The notes: generated by a model not told the origin, from the sequence alone. DNA of 64,000 nt from a phage (GCA_018995085.1 GCA_018995085.1_3936.1), one strand, 5' to 3'. Numbered from the stretch's first letter, positions 13,611 through 55,677 are shown. Made by a program: numbers and translations.

Positions 13611-13635
13611 GTTGACAAAGTACTTGACAAGGTGT
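13611..13635. promoter_or_regulatory. conserved 25-nt motif GTTGACAAAGTACTTGACAAGGTGT in divergent promoter region
   Basis: 24 of 25 nt identical to 55653-55677; two TTGACA hexamers; lies between divergent gene blocks. Confidence 0.5.
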
Positions 13636-13761
13636 AGGCTTATAAATACTTAGAAGATAACTTAAAAGGTTCCTCTAAAAAGGCTATTTAAACAGATATC
13701 TTTCTGGATATCTATCTTTTATCTTAAAAGCCTTTTAAGAGGTCTTATAAGAGGCATACCA

Positions 13762-14133
13762 ATGAAAAACAGAACAAACAAAGGCCAGTTTAAAAAAGGC
13801 CAGTCTGGAAACCCATCTGGAAGACCAAAAGGCTCTCGTAACAAAAGCTCACTTGTAAAAGCTCAACTGACCATTGATAATTCTGCTGAGTTTGCTGCAA
13901 AGTTGTTTGAAGCAATTGTTACAAGGGATGCTGCTAAGCTTGCAGAGTTCGGGTTAAACACAGACGACGTAACCATCAAGAGCATGATTGAGGTCGGTAA
14001 AACTATCATGACTCACTCAGCAGGTGAGATGAAAGCCATTGCAGCAGACACTAAGAAGACTCCTGATAACGGTGGTCAGTCTCAGACAGATAACAAACCA
14101 ACGTTCTCTGCTGTTGCAACCCTCAAAAAATAA
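13762..14133 (+). CDS. hypothetical protein with N-terminal AT-hook-like motif (GNPSGRPKGSRNK), possible DNA-binding protein
   Basis: GRPKG-type basic motif near N-terminus; function not established. Confidence 0.5.
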   Translation: MKNRTNKGQFKKGQSGNPSGRPKGSRNKSSLVKAQLTIDNSAEFAAKLFEAIVTRDAAKLAEFGLNTDDVTIKSMIEVGKTIMTHSAGEMKAIAADTKKTPDNGGQSQTDNKPTFSAVATLKK

Positions 14134-14214
14134 TTTTAAAAGATGTTGACAGACTCTACAAAGTTGCTCTAAAGTCTGTCACATCAACCAACAAATGAGA
14201 GAAGAGAGTAAAAT

Positions 14215-52369: not shown

Positions 52370-52921
52370 TCAACTTAGTTTTGCAAACTCTCCGTGGAGT
52401 TTCACAGCAGCTTCACAGTAAGCTTTATGGGCTTCTTCAGGCGTGTCAAACATACCAAGATGATAGTTTTTGCCTTGTAAACGTATCATTGCTCGAAACC
52501 TTTTATTTATCTTCTGTACACCTTTTGGCAACCCAGATGGGGACTTTCTTGACCGATTGCAAGCGTTTTGTGAAGCTGTACAAACCCTTAAATTCAAGTA
52601 CCTATTGTCCCAACCGTCCCCATTCTTATGGTCAACCTGTAAGGTTTTATCAGGCAGATATCCATCCACATACAAGATAACTAAACGATTTGCTTGGTAA
52701 CTCCTTCCATCAATCAACAACTGAACTGACTTGTGTCCATCAGTATTTGTTCTGTAGTTTCCAGCCCTCTTACCTCCAAATCTAGAGTTAAAGTTTGCAT
52801 TACCTTCTCTAAACTTCCAAGTAAAGACCCCTGCATCGGGGTCATACTCTAAAAGCTCCTTAAGACGAATTTCTGTAATCATTTCAACACCATCAATGTA
52901 CTTCCAACCAGCTCTTACCAA
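52370..52921 (-). CDS. HNH-AP2 homing endonuclease
   Basis: HNH motif VDHKNGDGWDNRYLNLRVCTASQN plus AP2-like KRFRAMIRLQGKNYHLGMFDTPEEAHKAY; abuts DNA polymerase gene. Confidence 0.8.
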   Translation of the reverse strand: MVRAGWKYIDGVEMITEIRLKELLEYDPDAGVFTWKFREGNANFNSRFGGKRAGNYRTNTDGHKSVQLLIDGRSYQANRLVILYVDGYLPDKTLQVDHKNGDGWDNRYLNLRVCTASQNACNRSRKSPSGLPKGVQKINKRFRAMIRLQGKNYHLGMFDTPEEAHKAYCEAAVKLHGEFAKLS

Positions 52922-55622
52922 CCTTACCTGTGCCAGTTACAAGCGTCTCACTCTTCAAACCTAAATTCTTAGATGCCTGACCATACATCCAGTCAGTTAT
53001 GGCTTTAACTTCTTGAGTCATACTTTCTGGGCATTCCCAACTGTTTTCATCGTGGTATGCCAGCAAAAGCCTAGCACCAATTGCTGGTTTTCGTCCATTT
53101 AATTTTGTCAATCCTTCTTCACATGCTCTTCTACAAGCAAGGTTAATTGCCTCATTTTGAATCTGAGCCTCTGAACCCATGAGCAAATAATTCAATAACT
53201 TATGTGGAGATTTACACCACAACCAAGCTCCAGCAACCTTTACAAAACCCCCTTTAGAGATTGCAGCAGTCTTACCAAACACCTCTTCAAGTGCCTTTTT
53301 AGTTGCTTTGTAGTCAGCTTCCAAGTCATCTAACAGCTTCTTAATTTTAGGCAAACGAATAAAGTAAGTCTGTTTAGTCAGTGCGCCTTCCTGAGTAGTT
53401 GCAGCTTTAATCGTCTTAGCAAACTTCTCATCACCTGCACCGAACAGCAGTGCATAGATACCATTCTTAGCTTTCTTACGACCCTTACTAATCTCATGGA
53501 GAAGGTTCTCATCCTGAGTAGCTCGACAAGTCAAGATATCCTGCTCATCATTCAAGCTAAAGTAAATACTGTTCAGTGTATGTGCATCAGTCCCTGAATA
53601 GACAACGTACAGGTCATTCTCAGAGTCATAGCGAAGGTACTTATCAATCTCTGGGTTGAGGTACTCATCAAAATGTTTGCAGTAATAGCGTCCATCTTCT
53701 TGACGAATAAACTCAATCTCTTCTTTGCCTTGCGTTACCGCTTTGGTGAACTCTTTATCACCCATAAAGTTGCAAAGGAGAACTAGCTGGGCTGAGTTCA
53801 TGTCTACAGAGACAACGTTAGTACCTTCTTCACAAATCCACACTGCCCTCATTGGTTCCCCATAGACAGCAGCACCAGACGGTACGTTTACAATACCATA
53901 TTGTGTCATACGTCCAGTTGAAGTGCCAAATACCATTGCACCAGCACTAAGGCGACCATCAGGACGAATCTGGTTCAGCCAACCTTTTTCATCATCCTTT
54001 GAGTTCTCAATAGTTCTGCGTCGGTGCATCAAAGTATAGTACTTAGCAATCTTCTGTCCAAGCTCACCTTCAATCGTATCATAAGACGATTCAGTAAGTT
54101 TTGGTGAAGTACGGATTAGGCAAGGCTCAAGTAAATCTGTGTATTTCTTCACAGACCAGTTATGCTCAATGTACTGTACACCTTCATGTTCAACATAACT
54201 CAATCCACACCGCTCAACCATTTCCTGCCACTTAGGATGCTTTGTAATCATCTTTTTATTGTCTTTGAAACGACAAACTTTGACAGGGCGACCATCTGAG
54301 TCTTTCTTGTAGTTCCAGTCATCTGGAATCCAACCAACTGATTTCAAGTAGTCTTTAACAACTGCTACCTGAGTCATACGAGAAACTTCAAACTCAATTG
54401 GTGTATATGGTGCATCAATCAAACCTGTGTAGCGACTTGACTCAAGTTCAAAGTGGTTAACAACGTGGCTGTTATAGTACTTCACAGTTTTGACTGTTTT
54501 TACTGGCTTCCAGTCTTTGCATTTCTTACCAATCTTTGCATTCAACTCATTGCAAATTGCACGAGCATCCTTCATTGCTACAAAGCCTTCCTTGTACTCT
54601 TCACCAGTTACAGAGTTGGTTGGTGTATAGCAATTTCTCTTTTCAATGTTAAAAATCTTTGTAGTTGGCTTACCAAATGGTTTGATTTCATATGTCTGCA
54701 TCTCACCATTACGTACCTGTTGACGATACTTTGTCTTAGGATACTTGGTAATCCTCTTCAGTCCATCTGCATGACCAAATGTTTCAACATACTCATTCCA
54801 AGCTTTTGCAAACTCTTCTCCAGTGACTTTACCTTTGGTCTTAATAGTTGGAGGTAGATGTGGTTCAACCTCTGAGGCAAGCTCATTAGTCAACTTGTCA
54901 AGCTCCTTTACATGGAACTCCATAAGCTCCTTATCAGCTTTCCAACCATTGATAGCTTGTTGACTCATCCAGAAAGATGTTTCTTTAGCTCGCATGTAGG
55001 TTTCATAAGTGTCTATGCCACACTTCTTAAGCTTGAGATACTCATTATCAAGTGCCCGTTTAGTTTTGGCGTTAATACGAATATCTTCTACAACACGAGT
55101 GAAGATTTCTGCATTCCACACACCCCAATGCTCAATCTCTGGTTTACGAACACCAACACGAGCACCCCATGCAGCCAAACCATGAGCACCTTTATAACCC
55201 TTTGGAGTTGGTCTATCCATCCACTGAACACGAGACTGAATAAGAGAATCCTGAAAGAAATTACTCCACGGCTTACATTTTGGATTATCAAAGTTCCATA
55301 AATCCGGTGCAATGTGATTGAAAACCCACCAGTCATAACCGAGACCATTATGGATACAAAGTCGTTTTGCCTTTAACGCAAACTCAACACCTTCACGTAA
55401 ACCACCCTTAATGTACTTAGTGTACTTGTGACCGAGGATAGGCTCATCTGTGAAGACCCATACAGGTGGCTCTTCATCGTCAGATTTATAGTCTGCAAAA
55501 GCCATTACGTGAACTTTAGTGAACTCAAGGAGTAAACCATCAGTTTCTGTATCACCAACTAAATGTAAGTTCTTAAAATCTACGTTTTCCATTTTTACTC
55601 CCTCTAAAATCATTAACCTCAT
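52893..55622 (-). CDS. DNA polymerase, family A (Pol I/T7-like)
   Basis: 909 aa with family A polymerase core; clustered with ligase and primase-helicase. Confidence 0.8.
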   Translation of the reverse strand: MRLMILEGVKMENVDFKNLHLVGDTETDGLLLEFTKVHVMAFADYKSDDEEPPVWVFTDEPILGHKYTKYIKGGLREGVEFALKAKRLCIHNGLGYDWWVFNHIAPDLWNFDNPKCKPWSNFFQDSLIQSRVQWMDRPTPKGYKGAHGLAAWGARVGVRKPEIEHWGVWNAEIFTRVVEDIRINAKTKRALDNEYLKLKKCGIDTYETYMRAKETSFWMSQQAINGWKADKELMEFHVKELDKLTNELASEVEPHLPPTIKTKGKVTGEEFAKAWNEYVETFGHADGLKRITKYPKTKYRQQVRNGEMQTYEIKPFGKPTTKIFNIEKRNCYTPTNSVTGEEYKEGFVAMKDARAICNELNAKIGKKCKDWKPVKTVKTVKYYNSHVVNHFELESSRYTGLIDAPYTPIEFEVSRMTQVAVVKDYLKSVGWIPDDWNYKKDSDGRPVKVCRFKDNKKMITKHPKWQEMVERCGLSYVEHEGVQYIEHNWSVKKYTDLLEPCLIRTSPKLTESSYDTIEGELGQKIAKYYTLMHRRRTIENSKDDEKGWLNQIRPDGRLSAGAMVFGTSTGRMTQYGIVNVPSGAAVYGEPMRAVWICEEGTNVVSVDMNSAQLVLLCNFMGDKEFTKAVTQGKEEIEFIRQEDGRYYCKHFDEYLNPEIDKYLRYDSENDLYVVYSGTDAHTLNSIYFSLNDEQDILTCRATQDENLLHEISKGRKKAKNGIYALLFGAGDEKFAKTIKAATTQEGALTKQTYFIRLPKIKKLLDDLEADYKATKKALEEVFGKTAAISKGGFVKVAGAWLWCKSPHKLLNYLLMGSEAQIQNEAINLACRRACEEGLTKLNGRKPAIGARLLLAYHDENSWECPESMTQEVKAITDWMYGQASKNLGLKSETLVTGTGKVGKSWLEVH

Positions 55623-55652
55623 ACATTACTGCAAAAAATTATAAAAAGCAAG

Positions 55653-55677
55653 TTGACAATGTACTTGACAAGGTGTT
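55653..55677. promoter_or_regulatory. conserved 25-nt motif GTTGACAATGTACTTGACAAGGTGT in divergent promoter region
   Basis: 24 of 25 nt identical to 13611-13635; two TTGACA hexamers. Confidence 0.5.

Follow-up and report, generated by a model that had tools for sequence, protein, structure and literature searches.

The 64,000-nt window of phage DNA considered here (assembly GCA_018995085.1; one strand, with all positions counted from the window's first letter) belongs to a Felixounavirus (Ounavirinae) sharing 97-99% identity with Felix O1-type phages, and it carries two nearly identical 25-nt sequences, each containing two TTGACA hexamers. The first lies in the gap (13513-13761) between open reading frame (ORF) 40 on the minus strand and ORF41 on the plus strand (site 1), and the second in the gap between the DNA polymerase gene ORF96 (minus) and ORF97 (plus; site 2). 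With moderate confidence, both copies are most likely the cores of related, rightward promoters of the host sigma-70 type, P41 and P97, in which an auxiliary second hexamer has been retained and may be read by region 4 of sigma. The parts of this reading differ in strength. The copies are very probably sigma-70 promoter cores with the upstream hexamer (hexamer 1) as the -35 element, and the downstream hexamer (hexamer 2) is probably functional; that its reader is sigma region 4 rather than a dedicated regulator is offered tentatively.

The pattern GTTGACAA[A/T]GTACTTGACAAGGTGT occurs exactly twice in the window, both times on the plus strand, and the two copies differ at one position, as a first-pass annotation of this DNA had noticed. 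Copy 1 (GTTGACAAAGTACTTGACAAGGTGT) occupies 13611-13635, exactly as given there, and copy 2 (GTTGACAATGTACTTGACAAGGTGT) lies at 55652-55676, 1 nt to the left of the 55653-55677 assigned to it. A search allowing up to three mismatches returned two matches in the window and none in 100 dinucleotide shuffles, and the bare TTGACA-N6-TTGACA arrangement was found in the same two places alone, with 0.05 occurrences expected. Once composition is allowed for, about 9e-4 pairs of 25-mers differing at no more than one position would be expected in 64 kb. Felix O1, whose complete genome measures 86 kb, likewise holds two copies, starting at 21514 and 63531 (the second at 63531-63555). The genome-wide scan that had been proposed, with copies scattered inside coding regions as the sign of a mere repeat, thus gave two sites in total and none of the scattered kind, since neither the window nor the full sequence of Felix O1 has any further copy within six mismatches. 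With two copies in a genome, each made of two units, the element does not fit a dispersed repeat or an iteron array.

Both sites share the layout of a rightward promoter: an A-tract, hexamer 1, a spacer that measures 17 bp at site 1 and 18 bp at site 2 and holds hexamer 2 at about -24 to -17, a TG dinucleotide and a weak -10 of the form T-A-n-n-n-T. At site 1, a UP-element-like A-tract (13602-13607) lies just 5' of the -35 in the context AAAAAAGTTG-TTGACA, which is common to ordinary promoters of the phage, and is followed by hexamer 1 (13612-13617), hexamer 2 as TTGACAA (13624-13630, about -23 to -17, with no -10 in register) and the TG plus TAGGCT (13633-13640), for a predicted start of transcription at 13646-13648, 6-8 nt past the -10 and near 13647. 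The corresponding elements of site 2 are an A-tract at 55643-55647, hexamer 1 at 55653-55658, hexamer 2 as TTGACAA at 55665-55671 and a TGn extended -10 with TAATCT at 55674-55682, from whose position a start would fall at 55689-55690, near 55689. All of these elements are on the plus strand. The match of hexamer 1 to the -35 consensus is six of six at both sites, and within the range of 16-18 bp beyond it a hexamer with A2 and T6 is found at each (TAGGCT after 17 bp, TAATCT after 18 bp). The extended -10 of site 2 reads TG-T-TAATCT, and the TG of site 1 directly abuts TAGGCT. In addition, the upstream context AAAAAGTTG-TTGACA is common to hexamer 1 and to the ordinary TTGACA-N16-18-TAnAnT promoters of the phage, of which those at 15740, 17204 and 49284 all read AAAAGTTn-TTGACA. 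The two sites resemble a canonical sigma-70 promoter of the type known from strong early promoters of phages in their UP-like A-tract (about -40 to -46), TTGACA, 17- or 18-bp spacer, TG, TAnnnT and placement ahead of co-oriented operons, but differ from it in carrying a conserved second -35 hexamer within the spacer and in a -10 that matches at only three of six positions.

Conservation was examined among Felixounavirus, Suspvirus, Mooglevirus and IMG/VR relatives, for a total of 32 sequences (11 distinct) at site 1 and 55 sequences (12 distinct) at site 2. The gaps as wholes are very conserved, and around the motif there is a sharp pattern of variable and fixed bases. The TTGACA of both hexamers is without variation in any of the 23 distinct variants from the three genera, whereas the six bases between the hexamers are variable in all six columns at site 1 and in four of six at site 2. 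Within the TTGACAA of hexamer 2, the sole change is a single A-to-G at the seventh base, which is A in 11 of the 12 variants of site 2. Two variable bases follow, and then the TG (TA at site 1 of Felix O1). At the -10, site 1 shows the variants TAGGCT, TAGCCT, TAAGTT and TAGTGT, and site 2 shows TAATCT or TAGTCT, such that T1, A2 and T6 are fixed and the middle three bases are free at both sites. Fixed T1, A2 and T6 are the signature expected of a minimal -10 from the way sigma-70 recognizes DNA. Because the in-register T-A-n-n-n-T is kept and the inter-hexamer bases are free, hexamer 1 is taken to be the -35 of a rightward promoter. The idea of a common control site at both strand-switch points, raised in the first-pass annotation, is thus supported by the promoter anatomy and by the conservation footprint. 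In Kolesnikvirus (Erwinia-type relatives), the homologous places hold a single hexamer, as TTGACA-N16-TAGAAT at site 1 and TTGACA-N17-TACATT at site 2. Ongoing gene conversion between the copies is unlikely, with the variable bases differing between the copies of one genome (ASO1A, Mooglevirus).

In the proposed mechanism, P41 would head ORF41, the transfer RNAs (tRNAs) and the structural genes, and P97 would head the genes for replication and nucleotide metabolism. Hexamer 2 would act as an auxiliary element kept by selection and not as the -35 of a second promoter; specifically, it may provide a second docking site for region 4 of sigma-70, 12 bp downstream of the first. Docking could take place in an alternative closed complex or while polymerase breaks its contact with the -35, and would thereby tune promoter occupancy or promoter escape.

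A doubled hexamer is also found in unrelated phages. A scan of IMG/VR for TTGACAANNNNCTTGACAA returned Felix-like contigs, many chance matches in coding sequence and one large unrelated family, which is T4-like and encodes UvsY, UvsW, gp46/47 and gp55 (E = 5.5e-61). To guard against ascertainment bias, the T4-like family was resampled by gp55 homology rather than by the motif, giving 60 distinct upstream sequences. TTGACA is present in 58 of these, about 25 nt from the gp55 ATG and on the opposite strand, and in 57 of the 58 a TAnnnT lies exactly 17 nt beyond it. A second exact TTGACA falls within the spacer in 54 of the 58, and the gap between hexamers is 6 in 53 sequences and 5 in five. The T4-like promoter is similar to P41 and P97 in its TTGACA-N6-TTGACA-N5-TAnnnT arrangement and upstream AAAAAGTTG, but comes from an unrelated lineage, has a good -10 (TATAGT, TAAAGT) and occupies one site per locus. 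Exact scans of IMG/VR for TTGACA-gap-TTGACA-rest-TATAAT, with the total spacer held at 17, yielded at least 120 matches in at least 44 clusters for a gap of 6, 115 matches in 52 clusters for a gap of 4 (complete), and 22 matches in 13 clusters for a gap of 8 (complete).

Several side observations attend these scans. The coding matches to TTGACAANNNNCTTGACAA were discounted, as at locus L034, which encodes VDKALDKV, and at several loci that contain 12-nt arrays of the LDKA type. The viral contigs L066, L073, L092, L097, L107, L114, L116 and L121 contain 12-nt tandem arrays, for example CTTGACAAAGCA and CTTGACAAAGAC, which, by analogy with L034, may be LDKA-type coding repeats; such arrays are a source of false matches to the motif. 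In the T4-like loci L184-L263, the doubled-hexamer promoter lies at about 440-500 of each (and at, for example, 3350-3394 of L042, on the minus strand) and is strongly conserved. It is situated 22-25 nt from the start codon of gene 55, points away from that gene into the 3' end of the upstream gene, and is followed by a conserved GGTGTAGCCCC-like sequence; the promoter may drive an antisense or small RNA.

Because hexamer 2 is the -35 consensus in many unrelated lineages, a universal reader is favored over lineage-specific regulators, and since its position also tolerates a 1-bp shift, region 4 of sigma is the favored candidate. A partial parallel is known from phage lambda, where a -35-like TTGACT at PR' is read by sigma region 4 in the paused complex onto which Q is loaded. 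As at PR', a second -35-like hexamer lies downstream and could be read after roughly one helical turn of polymerase movement. The lambda hexamer, however, is transcribed, has a -10-like pause element next to it and acts together with Q, whereas hexamer 2 is within the spacer, is without a -10-like partner, and has no known Q homologue to work with.

A number of points weigh against reading the copies as host promoters with a sigma-bound auxiliary hexamer. The contact between region 4 and hexamer 2 is one that we infer, and the literature searched yielded no mapped transcription starts for any phage of the Ounavirinae. The -10 hexamers match TATAAT at only three of six positions, and for this reason the promoter scan called neither site. 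Earlier promoter calls also disagree with one another. Whichard et al. 2010 (PMC3185647) predicted P41 as the first TTGACA (Felix O1 21515, window 13612) followed by N15-TATAGG, and the GenBank record of ASO1A places plus-strand promoters over both copies in other registers, pairing hexamer 2 with AATACT across N15 at site 1, and hexamer 1 with GTTAAT across N16 at site 2. In IMG/VR, second hexamers offset by 10 or 12 bp outnumber those offset by 14 bp several-fold, but this is a comparison of three scans (that for a gap of 6 a lower bound) as raw counts and not per consensus promoter, and spacer composition preferences may contribute to the difference. Finally, by RT-PCR (reverse transcription polymerase chain reaction), ORFs 41, 42 and 96-99 peak at 25 min, as opposed to 5 min for genes with canonical promoters (Whichard et al. 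2010; PMC3185647), and a regulator-dependent promoter would explain this timing more simply.

Such a regulator is at the center of the best-surviving alternative, in which the direct TTGACAA repeats are an operator bound by a phage protein, for example gp85, the 109-aa Cro/CI-type helix-turn-helix (HTH) protein encoded at 48119-48448, and the two operons are switched on or off in a timed manner by occlusion of the -35 and spacer or by help in opening the weak -10. The arrangement itself has precedent, with operators inside the promoter spacer being classic (lambda OR1/OL1). Besides the late maxima, it would suit the weakness of the -10 hexamers and the restriction of the element to two genomic sites, each heading one of the two large rightward units. 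A search for homologues of the HTH protein found them in the three genera with the doubled hexamer (Felixounavirus, Suspvirus and Mooglevirus) alone, and none in Kolesnikvirus, which has the single one; this co-occurrence is nevertheless weak, as it represents one evolutionary event and many genes are distributed in this way. Inverted repeats are the usual targets of HTH_3 dimers, but the present repeat is a direct one, and inverted symmetry over about 14-18 bp is absent: there is only the 3+1+3 self-symmetry of TTG-A-CAA, and the AGTACT between the hexamers is unconserved. The sole PDB sequences matched by the HTH protein were those of a designed repeat protein and of PezA. The doubled hexamer is also present in T4-like phages and in many further lineages with no detected HTH homologue, and a dedicated regulator is not expected to recognize the exact -35 consensus. 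An operator is considered rather unlikely, although it is a serious rival.

The doubled hexamer also invites comparison with activator-dependent phage promoters. Promoters dependent on lambda CII or P22 C1 carry TTGC-N6-TTGC direct repeats around a poor -35, and so share with P41 and P97 the short direct repeats over the -35 region and the weak -10; here, though, the repeated unit is TTGACA with a 12-bp period (versus TTGC with 10 bp) and the -35 is perfect. The TTGACA-N6-TTGACA repeat and the perfect -35 do not fit a CII-type activated promoter.

Tandem overlapping promoters, in which each TTGACA would be its own -35 and transcription would start at two positions 12 nt apart, had been suggested in the first-pass annotation, and two perfect -35 hexamers do lend themselves to such a reading, as do the pairing of hexamer 2 with AATACT in the ASO1A record at site 1 and a TATAAA/TAAATA just past the weak -10 of that site. 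The suggestion is not borne out, because hexamer 2 has no -10 of its own. The conserved T-A-n-n-n-T follows only hexamer 1, at 17 or 18 bp, while the hexamers found 16-18 bp past hexamer 2 are ATACTT, TACTTA and ACTTAG at site 1 and GAAGTG, AAGTGG and AGTGGG at site 2; none has both A2 and T6, and nothing is common to both sites. The same is seen elsewhere: in the IMG/VR sets, a usable -10 for hexamer 2 was present in 9/47 and 6/54 promoters versus 39/282 and 41/324 for control registers, so that the 101 other doubled promoters show no excess, and the only conserved -10 of the T4-like family is the one 17 nt from hexamer 1. Tandem promoters are therefore regarded as very unlikely.

It is less probable still that the copies are sites acting at the level of DNA, such as part of a transcription-activated origin of replication. 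The T7 primary origin provides the model, with tandem promoters before an AT-rich region, and the present phage has a T7-like replication module (primase-helicase, polymerase and exonuclease genes), AT-rich and highly conserved leaders after both copies, and cumulative GC skew minima near both sites. The GC skew is, however, confounded by the direction of transcription, each site has only two repeat units, and an origin role does not agree with finding the layout again upstream of gp55 among T4-like phages, as well as in many further promoters. A better candidate is the gene-free, repeat-dense region at 3680-5360 (Felix O1 12305-13928), where 1.6 kb without credible genes lies between convergent plus- and minus-strand blocks. 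The repeated words of this region include CTTGTTAG, CTGTTAAG and TTGTTAAG on one strand, with their complements at 4160-4250, together with CTTAAAAG, CTATAAAG and CTGTAAAG, and the region is a candidate replication origin or packaging region. Equally improbable is a neutral leftover of one duplication, with hexamer 2 carried along functionless in modules that remain alignable, given that hexamer 2 is unchanged whereas the bases immediately on either side of it differ among the genera and between the two paralogues, and that the same pattern is present in 54/58 T4-like sequences.

Other classes of promoter were considered and set aside. Read on the minus strand as a leftward promoter, the element would have spacers of 10 or 22 nt at site 2 and would stand at unequal distances from the leftward promoters. 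Among the aligned variants, inspected by eye, no sigma-32, sigma-54, sigma-E or sigma-28 promoter fits both sites. A T4 middle promoter, with its MotA box (TGCTTtA) centred at -30 in place of a -35, is rejected, as -29 to -24 are freely varying bases and a -35 is present; MotA and AsiA are absent from Felix O1 according to Whichard et al. 2010 (PMC3185647). The T4 late promoter TATAAATA is rejected as well: it is found at site 1 of Felixounavirus only (13641-13648, just past the weak -10), is replaced by TAATAAAA in Suspvirus and Mooglevirus, and has no counterpart at site 2. This exact late octamer is probably a coincidence, because it is unconserved in those two genera and the phage is without gp55. 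To our knowledge, Felix O1-type phages have neither an RNA polymerase gene of their own nor any known sigma or appropriation factor. A regulon of the host is unlikely too, because the full element (TTGACAANNNNCTTGACAAGGTG) occurs at about chance level in 185,579 representative bacterial and archaeal genomes, with eight matches in unrelated taxa.

With respect to genome setting, both copies lie where minus- and plus-strand blocks diverge, as the first-pass annotation had stated. At site 1, the window coordinate equals the Felix O1 coordinate minus 7903. The gap at site 2 measures 227 nt by the longest ORF, or about 257 nt if the DNA polymerase starts at 55592. The longest ORF for this polymerase starts at 55622, and the Felix O1 annotation starts at the equivalent of 55613; the ATG at 55592 follows a strong Shine-Dalgarno sequence (AGAGGGAG), is conserved as a start across genera, and falls downstream of the position where leftward transcription is predicted to begin. 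On the plus strand, the first gene begins 127 nt (site 1) or 174 nt (site 2) after the end of the 25-nt copy. These genes are ORF41 (13762-14133), the first of its rightward block, and ORF97 (55850-56272), the first of the rightward replication block. The product of ORF41, which had been described as AT-hook-like and proposed for binding assays, is instead a DUF5681 protein in which no sign of DNA binding was found. The second gene after site 1, ORF42 (14215-15630), has DUF2828 and DUF7788 domains, is labeled 'RNA-binding protein' or 'vWFA protein' in matching GenBank records, and comes directly before 24 Rfam tRNA matches. Rfam scans of the window and of the T4-like loci matched tRNAs alone.

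The resemblance of the two sites extends beyond the promoters. The gaps can be aligned over about 110 nt in three blocks, namely the 25-mer, ACTTAAAAGGTT and ACAGATA, and because these blocks are at matching distances the two promoter-leader modules are, by this alignment, paralogous. The second block (ACTTAAAAGGTT, plus strand) is at 13660-13671, 49 nt from the start of copy 1, and at 55700-55711, 48 nt from the start of copy 2. At site 1, the ACAGATA block and a predicted leader hairpin (AGATATC-N6-GATATCT) occupy 13692-13713 on the plus strand; at site 2, the alignment places ACAGATA at 55730-55736, and a separate leader hairpin, AACGTAT-AGA-ATACGTT, follows at 55789-55805, with a compensatory change (TATGTAT/ATACATA) in phage Michonne, both again on the plus strand. 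Both leaders are long, at about 115 and 160 nt, and both are structured, with fold z-scores of -2.8 (site 1) and -1.7 (site 2). In the predicted fold of the site-1 leader RNA (13647-13770; minimum free energy -28.4 kcal/mol), UAAGAGG is present twice; its first occurrence is base-paired with the shared block ACUUAAAAGG-UUCCUCU, and its second, which is the real Shine-Dalgarno, is unpaired. Separately, the octamer CTTAAAAG has 23 sites in the window, compared with 5.8 +/- 2.5 in shuffles (0/100 reach 23), for example at 13661, 13723, 13732 (minus strand), 55701, 55747 and 55834. Its sites are mostly co-oriented with transcription, with three in each divergent gap and several in the gene-free region, and the octamer may serve as a site for a protein or as a signal in RNA.

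In the opposite direction, a candidate leftward promoter at site 1 (TTGACT-N17-TACCAT, 13558-13586, minus strand) was identified by the promoter scan and is invariant across genera, and a candidate promoter for the DNA polymerase (TTGCTT-N17-TAATGT, 55623-55651, minus strand) has invariant AAAAAGCAAG and TA..GT positions. At site 2, the leftward -35 abuts hexamer 1 back to back. The distance from the 25-mer to the leftward promoter differs by about 26 nt between the two sites, and the 25-mer is therefore assigned to the rightward units.

Earlier work on Felix O1 had already predicted a promoter at site 1. That study stated nothing homologous for the 40-41 or 96-97 gaps, such that the twin copy at 63531-63555 was missed, and made no mention of hexamer 2 (Whichard et al. 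2010; PMC3185647). In the literature searched, there was no description of a doubled hexamer shared by both divergent regions, of its footprint or of its recurrence among phages.

As the two sites head two large rightward units, they are natural places to seek regulators of transcription. It is possible, if rather doubtful, that a second consensus -35 hexamer within the spacer, one helical turn or 10-12 bp beyond the actual -35, is a distinct phage promoter element read by sigma-70 region 4. Such an element would serve as a stepping or holding site in the formation of the closed complex or in promoter escape, and its conserved examples would be the P41/P97 pair of Felix O1 and the promoter next to gene 55 in T4-like phages. 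We know of no role assigned by the standard promoter model to a conserved -35 hexamer inside the spacer. If hexamer 2 does affect the docking or escape of polymerase, it would constitute a new and easily engineered promoter element.

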